A DNA stretch of 64,000 nt, taken from the sequence record NC_052656.1; one strand, given 5' to 3'. The notes under the pieces are model-generated. The model was not told where the DNA came from, did not search any database, and saw nothing but the letters and a program-made list of their open reading frames with translations. Source of the stretch: Escherichia phage anhysbys. This document shows, one piece after another, positions 33,032 to 55,864 of this stretch. Numbering within the stretch: position 1 is the first letter of the stretch; each line of letters starts with the position of its first letter. Both the position numbers and the translations under genes were made by a program.

Positions 33032-33331
33032 ATGCAAGTTGAAGACCTGATCCACATTCTGAATAAAGCTAAAGAGAAGGGTGCTATCAAAGACTGGAAA
33101 CGTGAAACAAGTGAAGATTTATCTCATTGTTGCCGAGAATTTTACATCGAAGGTATTGCTGACGATCATTATACTATTGAATGGTATATCAACTTAATGA
33201 CTCTTAAGCACGGTTCATTTGAGGTTTGGTTTGATGATATTGATGTAAATGGTTTCCATCCTGGCTATAAAATCGCTATGCAGTTATCTTATCGTAGAGA
33301 AGTTGTAGCACATTTGGGTTTACATAACTAA
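33032..33331 (+). CDS. hypothetical protein
   Basis: ORF track 99 aa. Confidence 0.55.
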   Translation: MQVEDLIHILNKAKEKGAIKDWKRETSEDLSHCCREFYIEGIADDHYTIEWYINLMTLKHGSFEVWFDDIDVNGFHPGYKIAMQLSYRREVVAHLGLHN

Positions 33332-33341
33332 GGAGAAAAGA

Positions 33342-33665
33342 ATGCAAGCAGTTGTTAACGAAGCTATTATGAACTTATCCTTCTTGTTAGCTGGTTTAGG
33401 AGGTGTTCTCATAGGTTTGGCTCTTATCTGGTGTATTCGTCGATTAATCGGGTACCGACAAAAAGGTGTTTCATGTTTTGTATCTTACAATTTTACAACT
33501 GCTTACAGCAATGAGGTTGGATCTGGCAATGCTCAAGCATTTTTACCAACATATCCTCCTACGGTGGAAGATATTCGAAACTTGGAAGTAGAACTTATGG
33601 GACTAGGTGATAACTATACATCTCTAGTTATTCAAAATATTTTTCGACTAAAACAGGGGGCGTGA
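33342..33665 (+). CDS. membrane protein
   Basis: ORF track 107 aa; hydrophobic LSFLLAGLGGVLIGLALIWCI. Confidence 0.5.
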   Translation: MQAVVNEAIMNLSFLLAGLGGVLIGLALIWCIRRLIGYRQKGVSCFVSYNFTTAYSNEVGSGNAQAFLPTYPPTVEDIRNLEVELMGLGDNYTSLVIQNIFRLKQGA

Positions 33666-33878
33666 ATGAAGGTATATTACCCTCATCCGTTTGATCCTAA
33701 AAACAAAGCCGTAATTCTTCGTCAGTGGCAACGGGTTTGTCGTACTAAATGTCCAATCAATAGCCCACACAATGTAGACAAGGACTATCTTGGGACATTT
33801 GTTGAATACACTTACATAGACAAAAACAAGCGTAAACAACATGTCGAGGAATACTGCTTAAGAGTAGAATGGCTGTAA
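33666..33878 (+). CDS. hypothetical protein
   Basis: ORF track 70 aa. Confidence 0.5.
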   Translation: MKVYYPHPFDPKNKAVILRQWQRVCRTKCPINSPHNVDKDYLGTFVEYTYIDKNKRKQHVEEYCLRVEWL

Positions 33879-33948
33879 ATAATAAATACCTTGACAAGTG
33901 TTTATTCATTTTGTAAAGTGAGAATACAGCAATGGTTTAGGAGTGGTT

Positions 33949-34620
33949 ATGAAAAAGTTTGTTGTTTACAGTCGTCTTTCTAAACAGAAAAAAGGCGAGG
34001 CACAATATGGTATGGAGAGCCAAGAGAACGATATCCGTTACTTCTTAGACTCTGTGCCTGATGCGGAAGTTATTGGTCAATTTTCTGAATACTATTCGGG
34101 TAAGGGCGATTGGAAGCAACGTAAGGAACTGGTTAAAGCGGTTGAAATGTGTAAAGCTACCGGAGCAACTTTATTGGTAGCTAAAGTTGACCGCTTGGGT
34201 CGTAACAACGCCTCCGTAGCAACTCTTCTAGAAATGATTGATGTTAAGATAGCCATTATGCCAGATGCAGATAAAATGGTTATACAGCTTCTGTCTGTTC
34301 TGGCTGAACAAGAGGTTAGAGGTATTGCTGATCGTATTAAAAAGGGTCTTGCTGTAGCAAAAAGCAAAGGTGTTTTATTAGGCAGTGCTAATCCTAAAAC
34401 TGCCGCTGCACGTAGAAAAGGAAAAATGGAATACAACTCTGTTAAAGCAGACGCTTTTGCAGAGACATTTCGTGAACGTTTGGAGATCCTGAGAGATTTA
34501 AATACACCTTACAAAACTATTGCTGAAAAATTCAATAGTAAGAAAATAGCAACAGCACGTGGTGGTAAATGGGATGCTAAGACTGTTTCTCGTTTGTGTG
34601 CCAGACTGAACATTAAATAG
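33949..34620 (+). CDS. serine recombinase (resolvase/invertase family)
   Basis: N-terminal VYSRLS (catalytic Ser context), LLVAKVDRLGRN, E.R.I..RIKKGL..AK; C-terminal ARGGKWDAKTVSRL; own TTGACA promoter upstream. Confidence 0.7.
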   Translation: MKKFVVYSRLSKQKKGEAQYGMESQENDIRYFLDSVPDAEVIGQFSEYYSGKGDWKQRKELVKAVEMCKATGATLLVAKVDRLGRNNASVATLLEMIDVKIAIMPDADKMVIQLLSVLAEQEVRGIADRIKKGLAVAKSKGVLLGSANPKTAAARRKGKMEYNSVKADAFAETFRERLEILRDLNTPYKTIAEKFNSKKIATARGGKWDAKTVSRLCARLNIK

Positions 34621-34628
34621 GAGAGGAT

Positions 34629-35051
34629 ATGAAACAAGAAAATGAATCTGTAGATCACTTAATCATGCTGTCAGCCCTTTTTGCAGGATGGGACGTATTT
34701 TTTGAAAATTTGTTCAATTCTGCTACAGATGGTTCCGATTTTATGCGCCAATTTAAACGACGAACTGTTGAGGACTATACCTTCTATTCAGGTCTGATTG
34801 AAAAAGGTTACGAAGATACAAATACAACACTCACCATTAAAGTTTTAGATGTGATGTTTAGTGTTATAGATGCTATCGACGAAAGTCTTCCGATCCTAGA
34901 CAATTGTAATACGAAAGCCTATGTTTACAAAATAGCTCGTGCTTATGTGTCTGCAAACAGTTGTCTTCTTTCCACCCAGATTGCCGTGAACAATCTTGCC
35001 AACTTGTTTGATGAAGGAGAAACTTTTTATGACAATCGATTTGAAGTGTAA
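34629..35051 (+). CDS. hypothetical protein
   Basis: ORF track 140 aa. Confidence 0.55.
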   Translation: MKQENESVDHLIMLSALFAGWDVFFENLFNSATDGSDFMRQFKRRTVEDYTFYSGLIEKGYEDTNTTLTIKVLDVMFSVIDAIDESLPILDNCNTKAYVYKIARAYVSANSCLLSTQIAVNNLANLFDEGETFYDNRFEV

Positions 35052-35394
35052 GAGGATTCTTTTAGATTTCTATAATAATTGGTTAGAACACCTCCGTCTC
35101 TTTCCAAGAGAAAGTGGTTACGCTGATGTTGGCTTATGCCGAGGTCTGCGTATGTATATAAGCGATGAATTTCGGGCAGAGCATTCTTTAGCATATTCTG
35201 TTTATGGTATGCAATTAGCCAGTTTTGAAAACGCTGGCTTAGATACAACTTTCCCATTTAACACAGCAAAATCTTTTGAGCAAGAGTGTAAGGAAAAACG
35301 TTGTATGTTTAATGAAAAACGTGTACAGTGGGTTAAGGATCGAGTTAAACAACTGGAACAAGAGTTGGATTTCTTTTATGACGAGGCAGAATAA
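35029..35394 (+). CDS. FY-WL/GLC/WVKDR family protein, paralog 6
   Basis: Track frame; LLDFYNNWL, VGLCRGL, FENAGLDTTFPFN, RVQWVKDRV. Confidence 0.6.
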   Translation: MTIDLKCKRILLDFYNNWLEHLRLFPRESGYADVGLCRGLRMYISDEFRAEHSLAYSVYGMQLASFENAGLDTTFPFNTAKSFEQECKEKRCMFNEKRVQWVKDRVKQLEQELDFFYDEAE

Positions 35395-40833: not shown

Positions 40834-41064
40834 GTGTTAAATAAAATCGAAGAAGGTTGTATGGCATTTTTGGTAGATAACCCGTTTCCCTTTATGGTTA
40901 AGGTCCATGTAGGAGAGTATTTAGGTTATGACGAATGGGATTGTAGTATCAATAGTGAAATGCACCACTACCAACCAACAATACTTAAGACGGATCAAAT
41001 GGCGCGTATTACAGTAGAGGATGAATTGATCATTGAGTTATACGAGAGAGCACTACACAAGTAA
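40834..41064 (+). CDS. hypothetical protein
   Basis: ORF track 76 aa (GTG start after AGGAGG; alternative ATG ~40861). Confidence 0.45.
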   Translation: MLNKIEEGCMAFLVDNPFPFMVKVHVGEYLGYDEWDCSINSEMHHYQPTILKTDQMARITVEDELIIELYERALHK

Positions 41065-41107
41065 GCTAGAACCCACCTAAATCGAACAGAGACGCTCTAA
41101 AATAGAA

Positions 41108-41139
41108 AAGGCACCCACTTGGGTGCCTTTGTTTTATTC
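41108..41139. terminator. bidirectional terminator between convergent blocks
   Basis: AAAGGCACCCA-CTT-GGGTGCCTTT flanked by T-runs on both strands. Confidence 0.65.
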
Positions 41140-41406
41140 TTCGTTAGATTGCGTCTCAGACGCGTTAAATTCGGTTTCAGTACAACTTGCTAAGTAACTT
41201 ATATTTTGCATCACTACAACTACAGGTGTTTGAAGTTTATCTTCTAGCCCCGCAGCCACTTGAGCCAAGGCATTATCAATATTTGATTTCCTAACGCCTG
41301 TTCCATGTCCTGTTGCCAAGTAAAGATTACCTTCCCCTTTTTGTGTAGCATTGGCAAAGTAGTAAACGTAATGTGCAAGGTAGTAATCACGGATTTCTTC
41401 AGTCAT
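41134..41406 (-). CDS. hypothetical protein
   Basis: ORF track 90 aa; AGGAGAA RBS; last gene before bidirectional terminator. Confidence 0.55.
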   Translation of the reverse strand: MTEEIRDYYLAHYVYYFANATQKGEGNLYLATGHGTGVRKSNIDNALAQVAAGLEDKLQTPVVVVMQNISYLASCTETEFNASETQSNEE

Positions 41407-41424
41407 TTTATTCTCCTAATAAGA

Positions 41425-41442
41425 AAGGGGCCGAAGCCCCTT
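41425..41442 (-). other. intercistronic CUUCGG-type hairpin
   Basis: Minus-strand AAGGGGC-UUCG-GCCCCUU between Sir2 gene and 41134 gene. Confidence 0.55.
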
Positions 41443-41449
41443 GAGTGGT

Positions 41450-42265
41450 TTATTTGTTTAAGTGGTCTTCGACCATTTTAATGAAACCTTCATTGCTGAA
41501 GGCTGTTGCAGCTTTTTCTCGGTAAACAAAAACTCCACGATCTTCATAGAGAAGTGTTTCTTCGTAATTAACTCCAGGGTTAACTACAACCATTTTTGTA
41601 CCCATACTAAGTGCAGGAAATAATTCCCAATTAAAATTGATAATTTGGTTTGAACATCCTACTACTACAACCAAATCTTGCATGGTCAAAGTATCGAACA
41701 AGTGAGCCATATCTGCATACAAAGGTGCAGCCTCACCAAAAAATACAACATTAGGCTTCACCCAGTTATAATCATCTATGTTTATACTATTGTAACCAAT
41801 ATCTACCAGTGTTTTGTAATCTCCAGGATGCATACGGTAAACTACTTCAGGAAGATAGCCGTGTACGTGAATAACAGAATCTCTGTCTACACCTGCTCGC
41901 TCTAGTAGATCATCAACGTTTGTTGTCAAGTTTACTATTTGGTTAGGATATTCCTTAAACCACTTTGCTATTTGAATATGTGCAGCATTAGGTTGTACAT
42001 CTTTAAGCTCAACACGTCTTTTGTTATAAAATTCGTGTGTTTTGGCATACAAATCCATACCGTTCTCGTCTACACCACCGACCACTGGAAGATCTGGAGA
42101 TGTTCTAACACGATAACCTGCTTGGAAAGCTCCAATATCGCAGACCTCTTCTAAATCATATTCTTCCCATAAAGCACGACCACTATCTGTGTCTGTTCTA
42201 AATGTTCGAATCCCACTGTCTGCACTTAAACCTGCACCGCTTACAAAAATCACTCGTCTTGGCAT
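41450..42265 (-). CDS. SIR2-family NAD-dependent protein
   Basis: N-terminal VIFVSGAGLSADSGIRTFR resembles sirtuin GAG(I/L)S..GIP.FR NAD-binding motif; 271 aa. Confidence 0.7.
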   Translation of the reverse strand: MPRRVIFVSGAGLSADSGIRTFRTDTDSGRALWEEYDLEEVCDIGAFQAGYRVRTSPDLPVVGGVDENGMDLYAKTHEFYNKRRVELKDVQPNAAHIQIAKWFKEYPNQIVNLTTNVDDLLERAGVDRDSVIHVHGYLPEVVYRMHPGDYKTLVDIGYNSINIDDYNWVKPNVVFFGEAAPLYADMAHLFDTLTMQDLVVVVGCSNQIINFNWELFPALSMGTKMVVVNPGVNYEETLLYEDRGVFVYREKAATAFSNEGFIKMVEDHLNK

Positions 42266-42735
42266 TCTTCCTCCTCAAATGGATCATAAGAATTGTACTC
42301 GTAAGTATCATCTTCTGAAAATTCTACTTCGAAATAAATATCAAACTCTGCAAACAGACGTAGGATGTTAGACATGCTGTAATAATTATCGTAGGCAGAT
42401 TCAGCTTCATAGTAAACATAAAGCAAATGGTTAGCCTTATCATCTTCCAAATATTTCCCGTCTGCATACGCATAGTCTGCATATGCTTTACCTGCATCTT
42501 CCACAAGAGAACGATCAAGCAGAGTAGGAAATGGTTTCTCTTTTTCTTTTAGTTTGCTCACTAACCAATGTGCAATATCATTCCATTCTGCATCCATACC
42601 ACTAAAGCAACTTGCTTCTTCTCCAAAAGAAGCTTCTCCTAAATCGCCACTAATACGAATAACATTAGATGAATTATAGCCACACGTTTCACAATCAGAG
42701 TAACTATTATGCACATTGACATTTACTTGAAACAT
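42250..42735 (-). CDS. hypothetical acidic protein
   Basis: ORF track 161 aa; overlaps Sir2 start by 16 nt. Confidence 0.55.
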   Translation of the reverse strand: MFQVNVNVHNSYSDCETCGYNSSNVIRISGDLGEASFGEEASCFSGMDAEWNDIAHWLVSKLKEKEKPFPTLLDRSLVEDAGKAYADYAYADGKYLEDDKANHLLYVYYEAESAYDNYYSMSNILRLFAEFDIYFEVEFSEDDTYEYNSYDPFEEEECQDE

Positions 42736-42793
42736 ATTCCCTCCTATAAAAGAAAAGCCCCCTGAAACAGGAGGCTTTGTTCAGATGCTGGCA

Positions 42794-43447
42794 CTATACC
42801 AGACTTTGTAGGTATTTGTCAAGGGCTTCTTGATCGCCTTGACAAACATAGCAACGGAAGTCTTGAGCCGAAGGTTGTTTATTTTCATCCCAGTCCCAAT
42901 AAACATTACCCTTATAACGTGAACCAGGAAACTCAAAAGAGGCTGTATGTGTAATGTATCCTGGGCCACCAGTGAAATCACAGAATGAGAATTGGGGGTA
43001 TGCCGCCTTTACTGCCTCAATAAACCAAGCTTTACGATCTAAAGCTTCATTGATGCTATACGCATGTCTCTCCATTTCTTCCCACGTTTTCCAGACACTT
43101 CTCTCATCAGGAGAAAAGACAAGCCATTCTGGAAGGTATAGAGTGTCATAGTAATCATCATATTCGATCTCGGAGGCGCACGAAGCTGACTCCTCCAGTT
43201 TTGAGTAATCAAAAGCAGAATATACCCACCAACCATCTTCCAGTAACGCTTTGATAGGGACGAAGCCTTTATCAGCATATTGATCGAATTGTTTGACACG
43301 GTGGCTTGTGCAGTCTTCAAACTCACATTCTAAACGATATGCACCTTTTCGACGAGCCTCAAGACCGTGTGTACTGAAAATAACAACACTTCCTTCACCA
43401 TCATTACGATCTACTTGATAAGCAACCACTGGTTTTGAATTTGACAT
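42794..43447 (-). CDS. hypothetical protein
   Basis: ORF track 217 aa. Confidence 0.6.
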   Translation of the reverse strand: MSNSKPVVAYQVDRNDGEGSVVIFSTHGLEARRKGAYRLECEFEDCTSHRVKQFDQYADKGFVPIKALLEDGWWVYSAFDYSKLEESASCASEIEYDDYYDTLYLPEWLVFSPDERSVWKTWEEMERHAYSINEALDRKAWFIEAVKAAYPQFSFCDFTGGPGYITHTASFEFPGSRYKGNVYWDWDENKQPSAQDFRCYVCQGDQEALDKYLQSLV

Positions 43448-44130
43448 TATTTCTCCTTATCTAGAAGATTGTTAGACAAAAACACTGCACGAGCAAAACC
43501 ACGTGCGGTTAGTGATCTAAGTTGTTTTGTTTTTGCACTAGCTCCACCTAAGCTTTTCCAACCCCAGAAGCAGCCTATATGATCTACTGGTTTCTTAACT
43601 GGTTGAACAAAACCATTGCCGTGCCAAATACAAGTTTTCTTTGTATACCCATCACGGGTAGGCATTTTAGGATGAAAGCTTCCTTCCTCTTCAAACAAAT
43701 ACCCACCATACTCATAAGGATCAAAGTAAAAATCGGGTTTACGCCATAAGGTTGAAAGTTTACCTACTGGGTTCTCAATCATCCAAGGAACATTATATTT
43801 GTTACCCAAAGCTTCCACTACACGAATATTAGCTAAAGCTTCATCCAATTCCTCTGTGCTGCGTTCGTGTTTGCTACCACTACCTGCTAACATAGTGCAA
43901 GGTGGAAATCCAAAAATAATATCGGGTTTAGGTATCCCATGATCTTCAGGGTTGAATGTAGAATCTATCCAGGCATTCACATAGGTTATGTTTGGGTGCT
44001 CCATCCTAACCTCGTATTTACCGTGATCCCCTTCATCAGCGTTTACACAAAAACACTTGTGACCTGCTTCGGCATAACGTAACACCATGATCCCAGATCC
44101 GTCAAACATAGACAAAACTGTTTTACTCAT
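43447..44130 (-). CDS. C5-cytosine methyltransferase-like protein
   Basis: Start refined to MSKTVLSMFDGSG (motif I-like F.G.G), FGFPPCT (PC motif IV-like), IENPVG (ENV motif VI-like); short for a complete MTase. Confidence 0.5.
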   Translation of the reverse strand: MSKTVLSMFDGSGIMVLRYAEAGHKCFCVNADEGDHGKYEVRMEHPNITYVNAWIDSTFNPEDHGIPKPDIIFGFPPCTMLAGSGSKHERSTEELDEALANIRVVEALGNKYNVPWMIENPVGKLSTLWRKPDFYFDPYEYGGYLFEEEGSFHPKMPTRDGYTKKTCIWHGNGFVQPVKKPVDHIGCFWGWKSLGGASAKTKQLRSLTARGFARAVFLSNNLLDKEK

Positions 44131-44536
44131 TACCCCTCCATTCAAGACAAGCCATAACTTTACGCCAATCACTTTCTGTAAGAAAAATCTCGTTTGCTTT
44201 CTTCCACAAATCTAAATCGTGAAGGGTTGGAATACGATATGTTAGTTCACAGAATCTATGCTCTTCTTCTGTAATATAACCAAAATGCAGAGCCACATCG
44301 TGAAACCAACACCAACCATGCATCTCTCGAACAACATGGTCATGTTGAGACATTATTTTATGCCGTAAACCTAACCAACAAGGAACAGATACTTTAGTAG
44401 TCTTTAATCTGTGATCAACAGTATTAGAGTATTCAATAATAGCTGTCAGTTTCAATCGTGCTTTTTCTAAATCCTCATGCGTCACTTTGAAATAACTTTC
44501 TGAAAGATATCCACACATATTAATAACCTCCTTCAA
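44123..44536 (-). CDS. hypothetical protein
   Basis: ORF track 137 aa. Confidence 0.55.
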   Translation of the reverse strand: MKEVINMCGYLSESYFKVTHEDLEKARLKLTAIIEYSNTVDHRLKTTKVSVPCWLGLRHKIMSQHDHVVREMHGWCWFHDVALHFGYITEEEHRFCELTYRIPTLHDLDLWKKANEIFLTESDWRKVMACLEWRGNE

Positions 44537-45461
44537 AAGGCTTTACTACATGTTGATTAGCTTTAAAACGTTCAACATAGTCGTTTTCGCCCATGTTTTC
44601 ATATAGCTTAATAACAACATAAAAGTTTTCCCAAGCATATTCCCTAAACCAACCACTAGTGATGGATGTGCAGACTTTAGATAAAGCCATTATAAAACTT
44701 TGCTTAGGGGTTGGACCTCCGATCTCTCCACCGAAAGGAATTTGTGAACGTTCCAAAGCCAAAACACACGCTTCTTCATAAACACCTAACAGGCGCACAT
44801 GTTTTGGTTGAGCAAAAAACTTTTCTTTGCTGGTCATAACTTCACTTCCATCTTTCATATAAGATTTATATGCTGGGGCATCCATTACCGCGATTGCTTC
44901 ATGGATAGAATCATGATCATAAACATACGGAACCTCATCACCTTTAAAAAAGTCTTTACTTTTTACGTTTAAGTTCGGATGAGAGTAAGTGTATGTTTCT
45001 TTCTCACGCAACTCATAAATACTCTTAAGATTTTCTGGGATCTTTGCGCCAAGTGACCGCATGAAATGAATATCTTTCATAGTTTTAAAGAAGTGAGGAC
45101 TATCCTTTTTAAAACGATGACTCATTTTAAGAAGGTAGAGCACATCTAAAGGAGCAACAACATGTCCAGCATAAGTTCGACGAACATCATCAGAATCTTC
45201 ACAATAACTAATCAAAGCTTCTGTGCTATCTCCTTGAGAAGCAATATCGTATTCCAAATGTGCACCAGCTATCATTTTGACATGGCCTTTGTTCCCTTTA
45301 CGTTCTACAAGTTCAACAAACTCATCTTGAGAGAACATTTTTGATAATTCTTCCCACTCTTGTTCTGTACACAGGTAATCTAAATCTACACAAGGGCGAT
45401 ACAAGTCTTTTCCCATGTCCATAGCATGAATTTGTAATGCACGGCTACCAATTAACACCAT
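44520..45461 (-). CDS. hypothetical protein (possible nucleotidyltransferase-like N-terminus)
   Basis: ORF track 313 aa; N-terminal LIGSRAL...DMGKD...DLDYL loosely resembles GS..D.D motif; TTGACA-17-TAAACT promoter upstream. Confidence 0.55.
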   Translation of the reverse strand: MVLIGSRALQIHAMDMGKDLYRPCVDLDYLCTEQEWEELSKMFSQDEFVELVERKGNKGHVKMIAGAHLEYDIASQGDSTEALISYCEDSDDVRRTYAGHVVAPLDVLYLLKMSHRFKKDSPHFFKTMKDIHFMRSLGAKIPENLKSIYELREKETYTYSHPNLNVKSKDFFKGDEVPYVYDHDSIHEAIAVMDAPAYKSYMKDGSEVMTSKEKFFAQPKHVRLLGVYEEACVLALERSQIPFGGEIGGPTPKQSFIMALSKVCTSITSGWFREYAWENFYVVIKLYENMGENDYVERFKANQHVVKPFEGGY

Positions 45462-45474
45462 AATATTTCTCCTC

Positions 45475-45520
45475 TATTGGTTGATAGGTTAAGTTTATCA
45501 AGCTTCCAGATTCCTGTCAA
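45475..45520 (-). promoter_or_regulatory. candidate promoter (minus strand)
   Basis: Reverse complement TTGACA-17-TAAACT upstream of gene 44520-45461. Confidence 0.45.
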
Positions 45521-45524
45521 TAAA

Positions 45525-45544
45525 AAACCCGCCGAAGCGGGTTA
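45525..45544 (-). terminator. rho-independent terminator (minus strand)
   Basis: Minus-strand AACCCGC-TTCG-GCGGGTT + TTTTTATT. Confidence 0.6.
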
Positions 45545-45551
45545 TTATTTA

Positions 45552-45824
45552 CTAACACATTGAGGAAGAAGAGATCCAAACACCTCTTGTGGTTAAACCA
45601 TTTTCATCCAACTCTACACCATAATCTTCACAAATGAAATCAATATAGTGATCTGCGGCTGGCGTTCCTGTAGGGTAATAAGTTTCTCCGTTACCGTAGT
45701 CACCTATCCAAGCTTGTTCCTGAAACTGTTCACAAAGTTCTTCAATTTCCTTACGAAACTTTCTTTGTGCTTGTTCCATCTCTTTAACTTTCTTTTTTAT
45801 CAGCAGTTCGCCTTCAGACTCCAC
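45552..45824 (-). CDS. small acidic protein with C-terminal GVWISSSSMC
   Basis: ORF track 90 aa; terminator hairpin downstream. Confidence 0.55.
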   Translation of the reverse strand: MESEGELLIKKKVKEMEQAQRKFRKEIEELCEQFQEQAWIGDYGNGETYYPTGTPAADHYIDFICEDYGVELDENGLTTRGVWISSSSMC

Positions 45825-45833
45825 AATCTCTCC

Positions 45834-46052
45834 TTAACAGCTACTACTGTGCCAAACGCCTTGAGAATTAACGACGAAACCATCATCACCTTCACCATAA
45901 CAAGAAGAGGATTGCCAATCTTCAAAACAGATTGCGTCATTTTCTAAACTAAGACCAAAACCAGCATCTTCAGCTTCTTTTGTAAGTTCGTCCACTAAAG
46001 CCATAATAGCTTGGGCTTTTTCAGTTAATTCTTCAACATTACGATCACTCAT
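45834..46052 (-). CDS. small acidic protein with C-terminal GVWHSSSC
   Basis: Track frame 45834-46094; start refined to MSDRNVEEL after AGAGGAGAAA. Confidence 0.5.
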   Translation of the reverse strand: MSDRNVEELTEKAQAIMALVDELTKEAEDAGFGLSLENDAICFEDWQSSSCYGEGDDGFVVNSQGVWHSSSC

Positions 46053-46360
46053 TAGTATTTCTCCTCTGGTTGGAAAACTGAACGACAGGCCCACATAGAA
46101 GCTTCTTTCAACTTAGTCTTTGCTATTGAAATTTGGTCAAGGCGGGTGGATATATTGGTAGACTCTTCCAAATCTTCACAATCATCCAGTTCAGCCCACA
46201 ATTCAGACATTAGAGCATCAAAGATTAATCCTAATCGAACTTCAGCATCTTTAATAGCATTCACTTTACCAATTTTGTCATCGGTATGCGGTTTATAACC
46301 TTTGATATCTTCGATTCCCACTTTACCTCCTATTAACAACTTAAAGAAGATGGATGCCAA
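46052..46360 (-). CDS. hypothetical protein
   Basis: ORF track 102 aa. Confidence 0.5.
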   Translation of the reverse strand: MASIFFKLLIGGKVGIEDIKGYKPHTDDKIGKVNAIKDAEVRLGLIFDALMSELWAELDDCEDLEESTNISTRLDQISIAKTKLKEASMWACRSVFQPEEKY

Positions 46361-46530
46361 TTTGTTCCAGTATTCTCATTTTCATCTTCTGGATCATAAT
46401 AACCTCCCATCCCATATTCAGGGGAGAAACTGAAACCTTCACCAGTCTCGTCTGCTAACTGTTCTGCTTCCGCTAAAGCCTCATAAGCTGCTTTTACGGC
46501 TTCTTCTACTGTTTTAAACTTGGTCGTCAT
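46333..46530 (-). CDS. small acidic protein with C-terminal NWHPSSLSC
   Basis: ORF track 65 aa. Confidence 0.5.
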   Translation of the reverse strand: MTTKFKTVEEAVKAAYEALAEAEQLADETGEGFSFSPEYGMGGYYDPEDENENTGTNWHPSSLSC

Positions 46531-46804: not shown

Positions 46805-47295
46805 AAAACCTCCTCAATCTTGTAGTTTGACTCCATCTCCAACACATTTCCACGAACGTCTCTCCGAAGAAAGGCATAAGCTTTATTAGGTATTGTAGAC
46901 TCATATTTAACCATATCTGGCACAGCAAAAGATACTACTACTCCTGCTGGGCTTCTGTCAAGAGCCTTATTAATATTTCTAAGGATATCGTTAGCCAAAA
47001 TTTCTGCCAATTCTCCAAGAACGGTTTCGGTTATATCTTTATATCCCATTAAGTATTTGTTGATATCTTTCATCTCTGTATTGTTCAGAGTATAATCCAA
47101 AGGATAGAAATTCAAAGCGGAGTCACTTTTATGTGTCCACATGAAATGCACCCGATCCGAGCAGAATCGTAACCCTCTTTGAAGAATATCTTCTACAACA
47201 GGCAGAATTTCTTTTGTCACATCATTAACCATGTTGTAATCTAAGATTTCTGCCAAGTTTGTTCTTTGTTCACCACGTTTACGTTTAGGAATCAC
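46783..47295 (-). CDS. hypothetical protein
   Basis: ORF track 170 aa. Confidence 0.55.
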   Translation of the reverse strand: MIPKRKRGEQRTNLAEILDYNMVNDVTKEILPVVEDILQRGLRFCSDRVHFMWTHKSDSALNFYPLDYTLNNTEMKDINKYLMGYKDITETVLGELAEILANDILRNINKALDRSPAGVVVSFAVPDMVKYESTIPNKAYAFLRRDVRGNVLEMESNYKIEEVLWQSSDQ

Positions 47296-47890
47296 TTGTT
47301 ATTGCCCTCATTACCAAAGGTCGTAGAAAATCGTAAATCTCTTGTTTTGTTTTCCCACGAATGTTTAAACAAGGAACATTATTGGCTTTAGCTATCTTCC
47401 AAGCCGTAGCTGTTCCACCTTTTGCATCTCCATGTTTATCAGTATTAGCACAAGCCAACAAGAAACATGATGGAGCAGGATTCTCCAAATCTCTACCTAA
47501 CACTTGATGCACATTACGTTGGTGCAATTTTCTAGCACCCTGCTTAAGCTTTTCATAGGCTGGGTGAACATCTTTGATCCATTGCACAGAGATAGCATAG
47601 TTCATTGTATCTGGTTTTGCAAGAACAATAACATCCCCTGGAATCTGATTACCTTTGAAATTTTCCCAAGGAACATAAATCTCCTTGTTAGTAGGATTTT
47701 CAGACTCTTGGACACCTGTTTCAAAAGCAGAATCACTACCCTCTGCCTTCCCAGACCTTAATTTAAACCCAAGGTTTGAAAGCCATTTCCCTATGCCTAC
47801 CATCAAAGCCCACTCTTCTTCGGATATGTCTCTACTTCCAACTCCCGTATAGAACAGTTCTGCCATAATCACCTCAACAAGTAATTTCAA
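47285..47890 (-). CDS. DprA/Smf-like Rossmann-fold protein
   Basis: TGVGSRDIS..., RSGKAEGSDSAFETG, GGTATAWKIAKANNVPCLNI resemble DprA/SLOG-type nucleotide-binding fold (by eye). Confidence 0.5.
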   Translation of the reverse strand: MKLLVEVIMAELFYTGVGSRDISEEEWALMVGIGKWLSNLGFKLRSGKAEGSDSAFETGVQESENPTNKEIYVPWENFKGNQIPGDVIVLAKPDTMNYAISVQWIKDVHPAYEKLKQGARKLHQRNVHQVLGRDLENPAPSCFLLACANTDKHGDAKGGTATAWKIAKANNVPCLNIRGKTKQEIYDFLRPLVMRAITSDS

Positions 47891-48182
47891 AAGGTGTATA
47901 GGGTTCCGTATTTCTCATGATCCAAGGACTGCTAGGATTGCTCGGATCATAAGGGCCAAAAGGTTTTATGGTAGGTTGTGTTTCTTTCTTCTGAATCTCT
48001 TCAAAAATACGACGAAGTTCAGAATATTCTTGATCCACCATAAGATTCGGTGCATCTGATTCTACAGCTTGCAGGTTATCTTCCTTAAGAACAATCTCAC
48101 GAACAAGATTAACATCTTCTGTTTCTAAGATAACTTCTTTACGGATATTACCTACACTTTGAATAATTGTAATCTTATACAT
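47874..48182 (-). CDS. hypothetical protein
   Basis: ORF track 102 aa. Confidence 0.5.
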   Translation of the reverse strand: MYKITIIQSVGNIRKEVILETEDVNLVREIVLKEDNLQAVESDAPNLMVDQEYSELRRIFEEIQKKETQPTIKPFGPYDPSNPSSPWIMRNTEPYTPFEITC

Positions 48183-48925
48183 TAATCCTCCTCAAGAGTT
48201 GAATAAAATTGAAGACCACCGTCCATATCGAAATAAGCAAATGTTAAGTTATTATTGAACACAGATCCAGTATCCATATAAACACGATTCGCATTGATAA
48301 TAGGTGTTTTTACATAAGAGTGTCCATGAAACACATAATCCACACCCATCACAACAGGAAGTTTCATTCCCTCTTTAGCACAATCCACCATATCTCTGTC
48401 CCACATAAGTGCTTCAGCAAAACGGTTTTCCTGTGTTTTTGTCATCTTCGAAGTGTATTCTGGAATATCTGTTACAGGGAGATATTCCAAAGAAGACGGA
48501 TACCCACCATGAATAAACGCAAGTTTCATGCCTCTGTAGTTAACAATGAGAACAACAGGTAAATCTTCTGTCATCATTGCTAAGGCTGTAGCTCCTTCTT
48601 CACCACATTCTTCAAAGACCGTATATCCTCCATTTTGATACCAACACTCGTAGTAGCTACGATCTCCTTCCAGCATACCTTTAATCATCATGTCTTCATG
48701 ATTGCCACGAATAGCGTAGCGATTGTGTTTACGAGTAAATTCTAAAACACAACGAAAATTTTGCTTTCCACGGTCAGTAAGATCTCCTAGAGATACAACC
48801 ACATCTGTATCTCGGATACCTAACTTTGCCTTTCCTTTTTCATACAAATTATAACAACCGTGTAGATCTCCAATTATAAAAAGATCTTGATCGCTTTTAA
48901 CAGTAATTTCTCTGTGTATGATCAC
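48182..48925 (-). CDS. Ser/Thr protein phosphatase (calcineurin-like metallophosphoesterase)
   Basis: GDLHGC, GDLTDRG, GNHE signature motifs in order. Confidence 0.8.
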   Translation of the reverse strand: MIIHREITVKSDQDLFIIGDLHGCYNLYEKGKAKLGIRDTDVVVSLGDLTDRGKQNFRCVLEFTRKHNRYAIRGNHEDMMIKGMLEGDRSYYECWYQNGGYTVFEECGEEGATALAMMTEDLPVVLIVNYRGMKLAFIHGGYPSSLEYLPVTDIPEYTSKMTKTQENRFAEALMWDRDMVDCAKEGMKLPVVMGVDYVFHGHSYVKTPIINANRVYMDTGSVFNNNLTFAYFDMDGGLQFYSTLEED

Positions 48926-49261: not shown

Positions 49262-49852
49262 TCAAATTATTAACGAAACCGCATGACTAAATCTTGGTTC
49301 AGATATAACCTCTGCTACAGTCACATATGTATCGTGCAGCCAAAAAGATTCTACTCTACAAACACAAATACCGTTGATAATGAAATCTACACAGGCTTTA
49401 TTATTTTCGCACACTTGTTGACTATAAACAACCCCTAAAGAGTCATAAAGTGATCTCACTGTTGCTACCATTTCATCTGTTTCGTCTTCCTGTGAAACAA
49501 AGAAAACGAATACAGACAAGTTATTAGCGAAAGTATTGCTATTCTCTACTTCAACCGACTTACAAGGTAAAAAGGAGTAATATTTACCGTTAGGTATCAA
49601 TTTCGCCTCAACCTGGTTAAGTATGCTTTGAGATGGTTTTGTTACATAAAAAAGATTTTCTGTTGGGTTTTCAACATTGCTCCTTACTATGCAACGAGTG
49701 GGGTTCGAAGGATCAAAAACATGATCGAAATCGACACACACAGGTAAGTTAACAACTTTAAACTTTTTGCTAAGAATGCTTACTGCTGTAAAAATCAAAC
49801 CAGCATTTATTTTGCCAGTGAAAGTTGAACGCATAACTACTCCTCGGATCAT
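49262..49852 (-). CDS. hypothetical protein
   Basis: ORF track 196 aa. Confidence 0.55.
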   Translation of the reverse strand: MIRGVVMRSTFTGKINAGLIFTAVSILSKKFKVVNLPVCVDFDHVFDPSNPTRCIVRSNVENPTENLFYVTKPSQSILNQVEAKLIPNGKYYSFLPCKSVEVENSNTFANNLSVFVFFVSQEDETDEMVATVRSLYDSLGVVYSQQVCENNKACVDFIINGICVCRVESFWLHDTYVTVAEVISEPRFSHAVSLII

Positions 49853-50541: not shown

Positions 50542-51051
50542 TTAAACAAAATAAAATGGTTGAGAGAGGCCCAAACGATTCTTTGGGTCGTATACATACC
50601 AAGCGTATGCTGTTTTATCTGTTCCACCTGCAACAAACGAAGGCCGTTCTGAAAGGACTATAAGGTTTGTTGGTGGATTCTTTTGATGGAACTCTCGTCG
50701 TTTCTTTGACTCCAAGAAGCCCAACCGAAGAAGATAAATACAAACATCCGCCTCTTTTAAGCTCTTTTCCAAGAACTCCATTGCTAACTTAAATGGAGGA
50801 TTTGTGATTATAATGTCGGGACGATTTTCCCATTCATGACTAAAATAATCTTTACCTTCTTCAAGTTCGCAATATTCTGAACCTTCAGGAAAATGGCGAT
50901 AAATCGCTTCAGCTTCACCTCTGCAAGGTTCTGCAAAAACCCAACCTTCTTCCTTTAGATTTTTGAAATCTATAACACTAAACAAACTATTGATTGCTTT
51001 TTGCGGTGTCGGATAATAATCGCTCGTTGGGCGATCATAATCTAATGCCAT
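50542..51051 (-). CDS. putative DNA N6-adenine/N4-cytosine methyltransferase (small, NPPF motif)
   Basis: IIITNPPF catalytic tetrapeptide; YYPTP near N-terminus; 169 aa. Confidence 0.55.
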   Translation of the reverse strand: MALDYDRPTSDYYPTPQKAINSLFSVIDFKNLKEEGWVFAEPCRGEAEAIYRHFPEGSEYCELEEGKDYFSHEWENRPDIIITNPPFKLAMEFLEKSLKEADVCIYLLRLGFLESKKRREFHQKNPPTNLIVLSERPSFVAGGTDKTAYAWYVYDPKNRLGLSQPFYFV

Positions 51052-51514: not shown

Positions 51515-52207
51515 TTAAATAGCGGTTCCTTCGAAATCCGCCACATTTACGAGATTAATATTTTCAGATTTAGAAGTCAAGTTGTTTTCTGCAACAGATT
51601 TTTCTTCAGTATCCGCCTCGTTACCTGCCACGTTACGAGGTTCTTCTTCACCGTAGGGATTACCGAATTTCAAAAGATTGATCAATTCTTCTTTGGAGAA
51701 GTTTTCTAAATCATCATCTGTTAATTCAATAATCTCGTCTTGTTCTTCAATAAATGTTTCACCACCAGAAAAAGCATCTCGCTTTTTAGCTACTTCCATA
51801 GCCTGTTCTGGTGTTGCTCCTGCATCAAGAGCAGCTAAAGCAAAGTCTGACCCGCTTCCTACCGCATAATATTCTTCATCAATCGGATATGCACGTGTTG
51901 GGTTGTTACCTTCGTGCAGGAAAATACGTCCGTCTGGATGAACAACAAGTGCAATAAACTCTTCATCTTCTTTATCTGGATCAGAGTGAATCATCAAACC
52001 AGGGACAGCATCACGTGCTGCTTCGCACTGTAGATTTTGTTCAAACCATTGAAAGAAAGAAAGCACGGAGGTCAGACGACCAGCACCACCTACAAGGTAA
52101 TCTCCAATTTTTCGGACCTTTTTGAAATTAATAGAATCTACACGTCCACCAAAAGTTACCTTACCGTCACTCAAAATCTTATTTTTGGTCGCAATAATTG
52201 TCGTCAC
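51515..52207 (-). CDS. HslV-like N-terminal-threonine peptidase with acidic C-terminal extension
   Basis: MTTIIATKNK (Thr after Met), KKVRKIGDYLVGGAG, YAVGSGSDFALAALDAG match HslV/ClpQ blocks from memory. Confidence 0.65.
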   Translation of the reverse strand: MTTIIATKNKILSDGKVTFGGRVDSINFKKVRKIGDYLVGGAGRLTSVLSFFQWFEQNLQCEAARDAVPGLMIHSDPDKEDEEFIALVVHPDGRIFLHEGNNPTRAYPIDEEYYAVGSGSDFALAALDAGATPEQAMEVAKKRDAFSGGETFIEEQDEIIELTDDDLENFSKEELINLLKFGNPYGEEEPRNVAGNEADTEEKSVAENNLTSKSENINLVNVADFEGTAI

Positions 52208-54201: not shown

Positions 54202-54462
54202 TTACTCCGCAATTTGAGCCATGAGATCACGCAGTTCGGTAAAACCGCCTACGTATGTTACCTCCCCGTTCACTTCAGACAGAATTTGTGGAAATGTGCG
54301 TGGAGGAACTCCGGTAAGATCAACAACTGTTTTAGTCATTGATTCTAAATCATAGTCTTGATCAAGACTTAAATATTCAAACTGTTTATTGCGCATGGTT
54401 AATAGTTGTTTTGACATTTCGCAAAATTGACAGTTAGGTTTACCAAAAATTACAAATTCCAT
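54202..54462 (-). CDS. glutaredoxin/NrdH-like redoxin
   Basis: CQFC active site near N-terminus (FGKPNCQFCEMSK); 86 aa; adjacent to nrdAB. Confidence 0.75.
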   Translation of the reverse strand: MEFVIFGKPNCQFCEMSKQLLTMRNKQFEYLSLDQDYDLESMTKTVVDLTGVPPRTFPQILSEVNGEVTYVGGFTELRDLMAQIAE

Positions 54463-55304
54463 TACCTCTCCTTATTAAGTAATACTGCTAAAGACTGTTC
54501 AATACCTTTATTTAAATCTGATTTTGTAAGATAGTGACTGGTTACTAATTGTGACTTCACCGGACGTGCTGCTGGAGCATTATAGGTTGAAGCTGATACC
54601 GCCGATATCTTAACAGGTTCTGGCATCTGTGTCAAGATCTTTTCCGCAAACTCCGCCCAAGAAATAAAATGGCTTCCTGCAAAATGGTAAGTCTTAACAG
54701 ACCTTGACCAACCTGTTTTTAATACTTCAAAAATAGCTTCTGCTAAATCTGGAGCATATGTTGGACAAGAGAACTGATCAGCAACAACAATAAAATCACG
54801 TTGTCCATCATTATAGCGAGACAACATGGTTTTTAGAAAGTTATTTCCAAATTCGCTATATACCGAGGCTGTTCGAATAATATATGCATTTGGGTTAACT
54901 CCTCGCACCATTTTTTCACCGAGTTCTTTCGTATACCCATAATTGTTTATTGGGTTAGGTGTAGTATCTTCAAAAATAGGATGAGAATAATTAAAAATAT
55001 AATCTGTAGAAATATGCACAAAATCAATTTTAAGTTTGCTGCACACTGCCGCAATATTTGCAGGTCCATACGCATTAACAGCCAAAGCAGTAGCAAAATC
55101 ATGTTCTGCTTTATCTACAGCCGTATAAGCAGCGCAGTTAATAACACCGTCTACATAATCTTCAACAATAGCGTTTCGCACAGCTTCAAAATTTGTAATA
55201 TCTACACGTTCTTTAGGATAAATTAAAGATACATTCGAAGGAACCACTTTACGTAAAGCTTGTCCCAGTTGTCCATTACCACCTAATACCAGATATGTTA
55301 GCAT
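54462..55304 (-). CDS. rmlD: dTDP-4-dehydrorhamnose reductase-like (RmlD family)
   Basis: N-terminal Rossmann LVLGGNGQLGQAL; 280 aa; overlaps rmlC by 7 nt. Confidence 0.75.
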   Translation of the reverse strand: MLTYLVLGGNGQLGQALRKVVPSNVSLIYPKERVDITNFEAVRNAIVEDYVDGVINCAAYTAVDKAEHDFATALAVNAYGPANIAAVCSKLKIDFVHISTDYIFNYSHPIFEDTTPNPINNYGYTKELGEKMVRGVNPNAYIIRTASVYSEFGNNFLKTMLSRYNDGQRDFIVVADQFSCPTYAPDLAEAIFEVLKTGWSRSVKTYHFAGSHFISWAEFAEKILTQMPEPVKISAVSASTYNAPAARPVKSQLVTSHYLTKSDLNKGIEQSLAVLLNKER

Positions 55305-55864
55305 ACACCCTCACTACGTAGCTGTTGAAAAGATTTAGCCATTGCATCTTTTGTTGATAAAATAGGTTTAAAATCTTCATCAAAAATCATATCAAAGCCC
55401 CAATCGATCCCTATATCAGGATCATCCCAACGTAAACTTTGTTCACTAGAAGGGTCGTATGGAGTTGTGCATTTGTATTCAAAGATAGCATCCATACTCA
55501 AAACTATAAAACCGTGTGCCAAACCAGGTGGAAGCCAAAACTGCGTATGGTGTCGTGCACGAAGAACAACACCGTCCCAAGCACCGTAAGTTGGACTATC
55601 TTTACGTAAATCTACAGCGAAATCCAATACTTCTCCACTTACACAACGAACAAGCTTACCTTGCGGGTTGTTTGTTTGGAAGTGCATTCCTCGCAAAACA
55701 CCGAAGTTTGATTTAGACATGTTATCTTGAACGAAAGTTTGTCTACCAATAATATCTTCGTATTTTTGTTCATTGTATGTTTCTAAAAAGAAACCACGAT
55801 CATCTTTATAAACGTCTGGTTTGATAATTACCGCACCTTCAATTTTTGTTTTTTCTACTTTCAT
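55298..55864 (-). CDS. rmlC: dTDP-4-dehydrorhamnose 3,5-epimerase (RmlC cupin)
   Basis: DDRGFFLETY, LRGMHFQ, KLVRCVSGEVLDFAVDLRKDSPTYG, PPGLAHGF match RmlC. Confidence 0.85.
   Translation of the reverse strand: MKVEKTKIEGAVIIKPDVYKDDRGFFLETYNEQKYEDIIGRQTFVQDNMSKSNFGVLRGMHFQTNNPQGKLVRCVSGEVLDFAVDLRKDSPTYGAWDGVVLRARHHTQFWLPPGLAHGFIVLSMDAIFEYKCTTPYDPSSEQSLRWDDPDIGIDWGFDMIFDEDFKPILSTKDAMAKSFQQLRSEGVC

Follow-up and report, generated by a model that had tools for sequence, protein, structure and literature searches.

The subject of this article is a stretch of 64,000 nucleotides (nt) from Escherichia phage anhysbys (sequence record NC_052656.1), hereafter “the window,” and within it a run of genes between positions 41,450 and 45,461 that encodes a Sir2-like protein, a compact C5-methyltransferase-like protein, a protein with a nucleotidyltransferase (NTase) fold and several small proteins. 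The interval reads as a set of closely packed accessory genes that closes a minus-strand nucleotide-metabolism arm, and in which Sir2 and the methylase appear mostly to travel independently of each other; this gene anatomy, and the view that the genes do not form one module, are very probably correct. Sir2 itself is, we infer, an active sirtuin consuming nicotinamide adenine dinucleotide (NAD+) and belonging to a phage-specific, CobB/SIRT5-like clade, and the reading that we favour for it, as a tentative prediction, is the removal of 2′-phosphates from RNA in the manner of Tpt1/KptA. Taken as a whole (anatomy, no single module and Sir2 mechanism), the explanation has somewhat less than an even chance of being right, its mechanistic part being much less certain than the rest. 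A first-pass annotation of the same DNA had proposed an uncharacterised counter-defence or superinfection-exclusion module joining NAD-linked and DNA-modification genes, an interpretation that is partly supported overall.

Positions 41000–46000 (all coordinates are window positions, and the genes of interest are all on the minus strand) match deposited Phapecoctavirus genomes of the phAPEC8, ESCO13 and Schickermooser types (Stephanstirmvirinae) over their full length at 99.6–99.7% identity, and the phage is a phAPEC8-like Escherichia coli myovirus, a Phapecoctavirus. Several near-identical genomes already carry Sir2 (NAD-dependent deacetylase) and DNA methyltransferase labels at these positions. 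Small early genes form a plus-strand arm, which runs into the minus-strand arm at a hairpin (41107–41130); the sign of the GC skew flips near 41 kb, and ribonucleotide reductase, ThyX, PhoH and the like are encoded farther upstream on the minus-strand arm. In order of transcription, the genes encode proteins of 313 amino acids (aa), 131 aa, 227 aa (methylase-like), 217 aa and 161 aa, then Sir2 and a 90-aa protein. The five open reading frames (ORFs) named at first pass all exist on the minus strand, and profile searches assigned each to a phage protein family (E 1e-62 to 1e-127); that list had omitted the 131-aa ORF, which is 137 aa long (44123–44536) when read from an upstream TTG. The features are as follows, beginning upstream.

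45543–45526, minus strand: terminator-like hairpin (terminator in NC_048196.1, a near-identical record), then a promoter-like site at 45520–45492, upstream of the 313-aa gene
44520–45461, minus strand: 313-aa NTase-fold protein, DUF7277 + DUF7275
44123–44518, minus strand: 131-aa protein, phrog_16551 (1e-73), no Pfam match; 396-nt coding sequence in NC_048196.1
43447–44130, minus strand: predicted compact C5-methyltransferase-fold protein, 227 aa, phrog_757 (7e-85)
42794–43447, minus strand: 217-aa protein, assigned to a family only, phrog_8514 (5e-89)
42793–42822, minus strand: uncertain sigma-70-like promoter match, TTGACA-18-TATAGT with TG, 11 of 12 positions
42754–42778, minus strand: terminator-like hairpin in the interval between the 217- and 161-aa genes, 11-bp stem then T-run; terminator in NC_048196.1
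42250–42735, minus strand: acidic 161-aa protein, phrog_9509 (2.5e-62), no Pfam match
41450–42265, minus strand: Sir2, 271 aa, PF02146 (E=5e-22), phrog_2162 (8e-104)
41425–41442, minus strand: terminator-like hairpin directly 3′ of Sir2; terminator also annotated in NC_048196.1
41134–41406, minus strand: acidic 90-aa protein, isoelectric point (pI) 4.58, final gene of the minus-strand arm, phrog_15991 (6e-53)
41107–41130, both strands: bidirectional terminator-like hairpin where the plus and minus arms converge; terminator in NC_048196.1

The first four genes abut or overlap, with a 1-nt gap between the 313- and 131-aa genes, an 8-nt overlap between the 131-aa gene and the methylase, and a 1-nt overlap between the methylase and the 217-aa gene; the 161-aa gene and Sir2 share 16 nt. 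Together with the hairpins at 45543–45526, 42778–42754 and 41442–41425, this packing argues for three units rather than one, and the interval reads as a unit running from the 313-aa gene through the 131-aa gene and the methylase to the 217-aa gene, a second unit made of the 161-aa gene and Sir2, and the 90-aa gene by itself. The acidity of the 161-aa protein and its overlap with Sir2 had been correctly noted at first pass, but the gene had been placed after Sir2, and it lies upstream in transcription. Terminator-like sites are enriched (9, against 3.2 ± 2.2 in shuffled sequence), and two promoter-like matches are strong (45520–45492 and 42822–42793). The second of these ends about 15 nt before a hairpin, which its transcript would meet ahead of the 161-aa gene; this promoter-then-hairpin layout (42754–42822) could be a stabilising 5′ stem or a chance match. 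A scan of 40–50 kb against Rfam gave no structured RNA, and no tRNA genes were found in the window.

How far do these genes keep company elsewhere? We searched 58 loci carrying Sir2 relatives, with 10 kb on each flank, for every neighbour, and the best 80 methylase loci and 80 NTase loci at the same 10-kb distance. Among the Sir2 loci, a methylase lies within range only in Stephanstirmvirinae-like contigs and in one other phage. In the former, and in two distant contigs whose Sir2 is 46–53% identical (L044 and L058), the 217-aa gene and the methylase stand upstream of Sir2, and in L058 the NTase does too. Two phi92-like contigs (L011, L012) have Sir2 and the 161- and 217-aa genes, with methylase and NTase both missing. 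Seen from the other side, Sir2 is found in just 5 of the 80 methylase and 8 of the 80 NTase loci. Homologues of both genes exist in rV5-like phages, yet no methylase lies in the 7–10 kb flanks of rV5-/Mydo-like Sir2; Vequintavirus has Sir2 and methylase, and Mydovirus genomes have each gene, unlinked there. On these distributions, Sir2 and the methylase would mostly be inherited independently.

Sir2 also moves by itself. Relative to Phapecoctavirus ukendt, the flanks are 97–100% identical and identity falls to 60–70% exactly over the Sir2 ORF; relative to Justusliebigvirus alia, the Sir2 ORF (41402–42267) is 91% identical, and the flanks are unalignable or reduced to short pieces of at most about 76%. 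By both comparisons Sir2 is exchanged as a single-gene cassette, and the allele pattern suggests either recent exchange between genera or selection for allele turnover. A second dip relative to ukendt (74–87% within the 97–100% region) lies at 46000–46400, over a 102-aa ORF (46052–46360).

These results bear directly on the idea of one counter-defence or superinfection-exclusion module, in which Sir2, the methylase-like protein and the acidic proteins would couple NAD+ use to DNA modification. The genes are indeed adjacent and co-directional, the 161-aa protein evolves fast in an arms-race-like fashion (37–38% identity between sister genera, as in Justusliebigvirus), and other phage NTases, MNT-like and making cyclic dinucleotides, have been reported from anti-defence regions, with methylases and NAD genes close by (bioRxiv 10.1101/2022.06.09.495361). 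The hairpins dividing the interval, the exchange of the Sir2 ORF alone, the phi92-like contigs, the rarity of Sir2 around methylases and NTases and the methylase-free flanks of rV5-/Mydo-like Sir2 all run the other way; moreover, Sir2 is not of the defence NADase type and the NTase has no cyclic dinucleotide-maker motif, as described below. We therefore consider a single module very improbable, and the co-location to which the first-pass annotation had given weight is for the most part lineage-limited.

Some observations nonetheless weigh against so clean a separation. Promoter-like matches are not enriched (13, against 14.0 in shuffled sequence). In L044 and L058, distant as these contigs are, the methylase stays near Sir2. 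A methylase-like gene encoding a 39%-identical protein overlaps Sir2 by 23 nt in Salmonella phage SeKF_80 (Grimontviridae, Moazamivirus), which is a residual hint in favour of the earlier reading. With this overlap and the proximity in the two distant contigs, a functional link between Sir2 and methylase is conceivable. The SeKF_80 methylase-like gene has Y-D-L-T-G in place of the invariant F-D-G-S-G S-adenosylmethionine loop; its locus also holds a MazG-like gene upstream and, downstream, a DxDxT (HAD-like) gene and a metallophosphoesterase.

The identification of the 271-aa protein as Sir2 stands. It scores 79 bits against PF02146 (E=5.4e-22), above the gathering threshold (cut-off 24), and both the glycine loop (residues 10–23, GAGLSADSGIRTFR) and the catalytic His are present. 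In an alignment of 19 phage homologues, the most distant of them about 46% identical by BLAST (52% when aligned), G10-A-G-x-S14, F22-R23, Y80-x-x-R83, T114-T-N-V-D118, H135-G136, KPNV, FFxE and GxS are invariant in all 19. These elements line up with their CobB counterparts, H135-G136 with IHMHG, and the TQNxD-type motif has Thr for Gln (TTNVD). None of the 19 has a Cys between HG and KPNV, the zinc-ribbon stretch of CobB, and there is no Cys4. A variable insert of 26–31 residues follows residue 50 and is missing from rV5-like copies. Homologues occur in 980 of 50,697 phage records (about 2%), carried by T5-like, rV5-like, phAPEC8-type, Mydovirus, KVP40-like and jumbo phages, and the window protein, homologous over its full length, is 46% identical to rV5 ORF84 and 60% identical to the copies in T5-like phages. 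A distinct phage sirtuin clade has been described computationally by Iyer, Burroughs, Anantharaman and Aravind (2022; PMC9503650).

Among solved structures, E. coli CobB (1s5p) comes first, at 1e-18 when the sequence is searched alone and at 1.4e-26 for a profile of the clade, which then ranks Sir2Af1/2, SIRT5, Sir2Tm and SIRT2. NCBIfam CobB-type models match at 3e-30 to 8e-24, but the CobB equivalogs (NF040867/NF001755) are missed at 84 bits against cut-offs of 318–320. PADLOC defence models (ThsA, DSR, SIR2-HerA, pAgo-Sir2) gave no family at E≤0.01, and family scans found no HerA, pAgo or TIR domains among the neighbours. Given the CobB/SIRT5-like matches and the lack of a PADLOC match, the protein is best described as a divergent, zinc-less, class-III-like sirtuin rather than a defence-type NADase domain, and the likeness to NAD-consuming defence Sir2 domains drawn at first pass gives way to deacylases as the nearest relatives.

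Might it still be a plain NADase or ADP-ribosyltransferase, serving host shut-off or the exclusion of competing phages? Sir2 domains of the NADase type have typically lost the zinc module too, and the turnover of alleles at the Sir2 ORF hints at a role in conflict. Against this, the protein resembles none of the ThsA, DSR, SIR2-HerA or pAgo-associated Sir2 models, keeps its catalytic His and Y-x-x-R, and is encoded by hundreds of lytic phages which themselves need NAD+; such an activity is at best a long shot.

Deacylation deserves more attention. Sir2 may be a CobB-like, NAD+-dependent lysine deacylase or desuccinylase that resets host or phage protein acylation and is unrelated to RNA repair or to the methylase; acetylated metabolic or nucleic-acid enzymes, for example, would be reactivated during infection. 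Its nearest solved relatives are all deacylases with CobB first, the NCBIfam CobB-type matches agree, and Y80-x-x-R83, the catalytic His and an FGE-type substrate loop are all invariant. The Y-x-x-R pair of CobB and SIRT5 binds acidic acyl groups. On the other hand, the score falls far below the CobB equivalog cut-off (84 against 320 bits), the zinc-ribbon Cys residues that shape the peptide cleft are lost across the clade, and the genes kept next to Sir2 in several lineages encode RNA-end enzymes rather than acyltransferases. A phage copy of the same activity is also less obvious given that host CobB is reported to restrict phage (PMC4271551). This second reading is possible but rather unlikely.

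The favoured reading, RNA 2′-phosphate removal, draws on gene neighbourhoods. Phage sirtuins have been predicted to remove RNA 2′-phosphates in a KptA-like manner (Iyer et al., 2022, section 3.7.3; PMC9503650), in an rV5 neighbourhood comprising tRNA ligase, cREC, kinase, MazG and sometimes a calcineurin-like phosphoesterase; the same paper mentions neither a methylase nor the 161-aa, 217-aa or NTase neighbours. We found this context, in varying order, beside rV5-/Mydo-like Sir2 (RNA ligase, cREC, P-loop kinase, phosphoesterase and MazG-like gene), and in 12 of the 58 Sir2 loci, all rV5- or Mydo-like, RnlA, kinase, cREC and phosphoesterase lie within about 5.4 kb of Sir2. In the window, tblastn with rV5 RnlA, cREC, kinase, phosphoesterase and ORF85 matched Sir2 alone. 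The near-identical Schickermooser genome has the rV5-set homologues at 46.4–52.2 kb of its record, on the same strand and beyond the end of the window (RnlA 47%, kinase 43%, cREC-like 58%, phosphoesterase 36% and MazG-like 31% identical to rV5), as well as ten tRNA genes at 55.9–57.9 kb. All parts of the proposed repair pathway are thus present in this phage type, with Sir2 detached from the rest.

In the proposed mechanism, Sir2 would spend one NAD+ per turnover to strip an anionic group from a macromolecule. The RNA 2′-phosphate would attack C1″ of NAD+, with departure of nicotinamide, and the ribose 2″-OH, activated by His135, would resolve the adduct into 2′-OH RNA and ADP-ribose 1″-2″ cyclic phosphate; with the phage RNA ligase, kinase, cREC and phosphoesterase, Sir2 would in this way complete a yeast-type repair of RNA (tRNA). 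In the sirtuin reaction, a substrate oxygen attacks C1″ of NAD+, nicotinamide is lost and the ribose 2′-OH attacks with the help of the catalytic His, which parallels the two steps of Tpt1. This parallel chemistry, the RNA-repair neighbourhoods of rV5-/Mydo-like Sir2 and the RNA-linked company of the window's NTase and phosphoesterase lead us to favour RNA 2′-phosphate removal, ranked above lysine deacylation and then plain NADase, ADP-ribosyltransferase or other activity.

Several points count against it. To our knowledge, RNA 2′-phosphotransferase activity has never been shown for a sirtuin, and homology alone, the Y-x-x-R of desuccinylases included, favours lysine deacylation. T5-like phages make up the majority of Sir2 carriers, and not one tested neighbour is shared by them. 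The RNA-repair set of Schickermooser lies 27–32 kb from Sir2, not adjacent to it. A T4-type PNKP pathway would leave no 2′-phosphate at all. Finally, no experimental work on this phage sirtuin clade or on these genes was found in the literature searched; to that extent the genes are uncharacterised, as the first-pass annotation had it, though they are annotated and the RNA-repair reading is published.

The 313-aa protein proved, as first suspected, to have an NTase-like N-terminus with its catalytic acids. It combines a pol-beta-type NTase fold (DUF7277) with a conserved helical domain (DUF7275), for which no solved counterpart was found, and fits the pattern hG[GS]...[DE]x[DE]...[DE]; G5-S6, D26-x-D28, E70 and many residues of the helical C-terminal part are invariant in the family. 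In jumbo Salmonella phages, the NTase sits between a pair made of T4-type RNA ligase 1 and PNKP and a 247-aa metallophosphoesterase, the latter being an orthologue (35% identity, full length) of a window gene at 48182–48925. Within 10 kb, the 80 NTase loci hold the phosphoesterase in 21 cases, Rnl1 in 12, PNKP in 11 and the methylase in 9. The NTase would most likely act on RNA 3′ ends. Two other candidates were rejected: the protein has no similarity to RlaP of Pantoea phage Phynn, and instead of the GS-x-AY[GAN]T-x4-SDxD of phage NTases that make cGAMP it has GSRALQ...(19 residues)...DLD. The 226–229-aa genes adjoining DUF7275 in jumbo phages were considered as methylases and are not.

The C5-methyltransferase likeness of the 227-aa protein was borne out in both fold and catalytic motifs. 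Its ORF spans 43447–44172 (241 aa) when read from a GTG, and 227 aa from the ATG at 44130, the GenBank start. No Pfam family, PF00145 included, matches it at E≤0.1, and a precomputed PF00145 match exists for 1 of the 120 homologues listed. Across 26 sequences, F9-D-G-S-G13, F75-P-x-C78-T and E119-N-P121 are invariant or nearly so, and they align with motifs I (FDGSG), IV (FPxC, with the catalytic Cys) and VI (ENP, with the catalytic Glu) of M.HaeIII. An AlphaFold model (pLDDT 83) retrieves DNMT3A/B and M.HaeIII in Foldseek (E 4e-7 to 1e-5, TM about 0.45–0.5), and PADLOC gives weak matches to type II methyltransferases (MTases) and DruM. The model is that of a class I MTase fold with C5 catalytic motifs, in which 227 aa would leave no room for a normal target-recognition domain; about 60 conserved residues (137–198), between motifs VIII and IX, stand at its position. 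The family is large (870 clusters) and unusually well conserved, at about 60% identity between widely differing phages and prophages, and is found in 1,495 phage records, mostly phages without Sir2, roughly 49-kb siphoviruses.

Pfam, PHROG and PADLOC scans found no nuclease family among the methylase's neighbours, which makes the protein an orphan. It is somewhat favoured, from its motifs and distribution, to be an independent orphan enzyme placing 5-methylcytosine (m5C) on phage DNA and so escaping some restriction enzymes. In the BASEL study, rV5-like and phi92-like phages were exceptionally sensitive to the restriction systems tested; this argues against bulk DNA modification, not against site-specific m5C.

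An RNA target is possible too, and leads to another account of the linkage. The methylase would mark tRNA or mRNA (m5C or 5-methyluridine, m5U), blocking host ribotoxins or flagging repaired RNA, while Sir2 with NAD+, the NTase and phosphoesterases would mend cleaved RNA; linkage of the two genes would then be functional, having arisen or been kept independently in Stephanstirmvirinae-like phages and in Moazamivirus. Dnmt2, which has a DNA-methylase fold, makes m5C that guards tRNA against cleavage, and Pnkp-Hen1 puts methyl groups on the ends of repaired RNA. The two independent adjacencies, the missing large target-recognition domain and the presence of PNKP within 10 kb in 11 of the 80 methylase loci would suit this account. 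However, the top structural matches are DNA enzymes, DNMT3A/B and M.HaeIII, not Dnmt2; most methylase relatives sit in ~49-kb siphoviruses without Sir2, where 10 kb is a large share of the genome; and the two genes are unlinked in Vequintavirus and Mydovirus. We regard such a protect-and-repair pair as improbable.

The small proteins add lineage-specific colour. The 161-aa protein (pI 4.05, 23% Asp + Glu) occurs in about 130 Stephanstirmvirinae records only, always abutting Sir2. The 217-aa gene is the most constant neighbour of Sir2 in the lineage, standing beside it in L011–L016, L044 and L058. An exhaustive search gave 285 representatives of its family, with no Pfam match for the members and no PDB match for the profile. 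A majority carries a zinc-ribbon-like segment, WW-x-EC-x-x-CG...YC-x-x-x-C (CxxC...CxxxC), which an acidic, Cys-poor stretch replaces in the window protein and its close relatives. The family also occurs in phages of about 41–60 kb such as Vibrio phage MAR and Pseudomonas phage PaMx11, outside the phage groups found with Sir2. Because Phynn has a Mom-family gene after its methylase, the 217-aa protein was tried as a Mom-like DNA modifier, and no similarity was found.

Farther upstream on the same strand, three acidic ORFs (45552–45824, 45834–46094 and 46333–46530; pI 4.0–4.4, no Pfam family) share a W-x-(S/P)-S-x(1-2)-C tail, ending respectively in VWISSSSMC, VWHSSSC and NWHPSSLSC. At a distance of up to 10 kb from the DUF7275 NTase, the first two and the 102-aa ORF at 46052–46360 have homologues in 25–30 of the 80 loci and the 65-aa protein in 7, many of the loci being from T4-like phages. 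A DprA/SLOG-like gene (47285–47890, minus strand, 201 aa, phrog_768) lies about 5 kb upstream of Sir2, and beyond it is the lambda-phosphatase-like metallophosphoesterase (48182–48925, minus strand, 247 aa). These two are kept together with a 102-aa gene between them, and near Sir2 in L044 and L058 with the block inverted. SLOG domains have been discussed as processors of ADP-ribose derivatives (PMC9503650).

Some labels in the surrounding region call for comment. The 196-aa ORF at 49262–49852 is called “histidyl tRNA synthetase” in a near-identical genome and matches no Pfam or NCBIfam family. The 169-aa ORF at 50542–51051 (minus strand) bears the RefSeq label “DNA methyltransferase” in a near-identical genome, a label that the lack of any Pfam match makes doubtful. 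An HslV/proteasome-like ORF of 230 aa lies at 51515–52207 (minus strand; PF00227, 1e-5). At about 55869, the window lacks 1.87 kb present in Schickermooser (record 33199–35069), namely rmlA (glucose-1-phosphate thymidylyltransferase) and rmlB (dTDP-glucose 4,6-dehydratase). The rmlD-like (54462–55304) and rmlC-like (55298–55864) ORFs are still present, which leaves the phage of the window with only half of the dTDP-rhamnose pathway.

Since genes, annotation and leading hypothesis can all be found in public sources, the locus is part of an ordinary though still unexplained accessory genome, and modest as a discovery. Only two points are new, and mildly so: Sir2 alleles are exchanged as a single gene, and methylase and Sir2 are adjacent in a second, independent case. 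A CobB-like sirtuin is nevertheless found in some 2% of sequenced phage genomes, and no experiment on its role was found. If it is an RNA 2′-phosphotransferase, this would be the first demonstration of a sirtuin working on nucleic acid, and would give phages a novel means of undoing host RNA cleavage; if it is a deacylase, phages would be rewriting host protein acylation. To this the present locus adds a Sir2 that is a self-contained, terminator-flanked cassette, swapped from genus to genus and here detached from the RNA-repair genes.

Set beside known systems, the methylase-like protein shares its fold and motifs I, IV and VI with orphan phage C5 MTases (PHROG 757), M.HaeIII and DNMT3, and has no partner nuclease adjacent; it differs from M.HaeIII and DNMT3 in being only 227 aa long, with a target-recognition stand-in of at most about 60 residues, and in lacking a PF00145 match. 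Relative to MenT/AbiEii-type and antibiotic NTases (MenT1 8an4, TglT 6j7n, ANT(2″), LnuA), the 313-aa protein adds the large DUF7275 domain, and no antitoxin-like partner is evident beside it, no comparison with AbiEi or MenA having been made. With the defence Sir2 NADases (ThsA, DSR1/2, SIR2-HerA, SPARSA), the window Sir2 has in common its superfamily and the lack of a zinc module; it differs in having no fused or paired sensor domain and in being a lytic-phage gene. With E. coli CobB and human SIRT5 it shares GAGxS, the catalytic HG and Y-x-x-R, but it lacks the Cys4 zinc ribbon, has TTN for TQN and scores far under the equivalog cut-offs. The linkage of the type 2 RNA-repair sirtuin neighbourhood (PMC9503650) is seen in rV5-/Mydo-like loci and not in the window. 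The proposed likeness to Tpt1/KptA lies in NAD+ serving as the ADP-ribose source that an oxyanion accepts, followed by attack of the ribose 2″-OH, and in rV5-like phages Sir2 keeps genomic company with RNA ligase and kinase as Tpt1 does with Trl1; since Tpt1/KptA has an ART-like fold and sirtuins a Rossmann domain, this would be a resemblance of function, not membership of a family. It is with the phage sirtuin clade itself (PHROG 2162, including rV5 ORF84 and the T5-like “Sir2-like protein”) that the window Sir2 shares both the catalytic set and the loss of the zinc-binding Cys residues.

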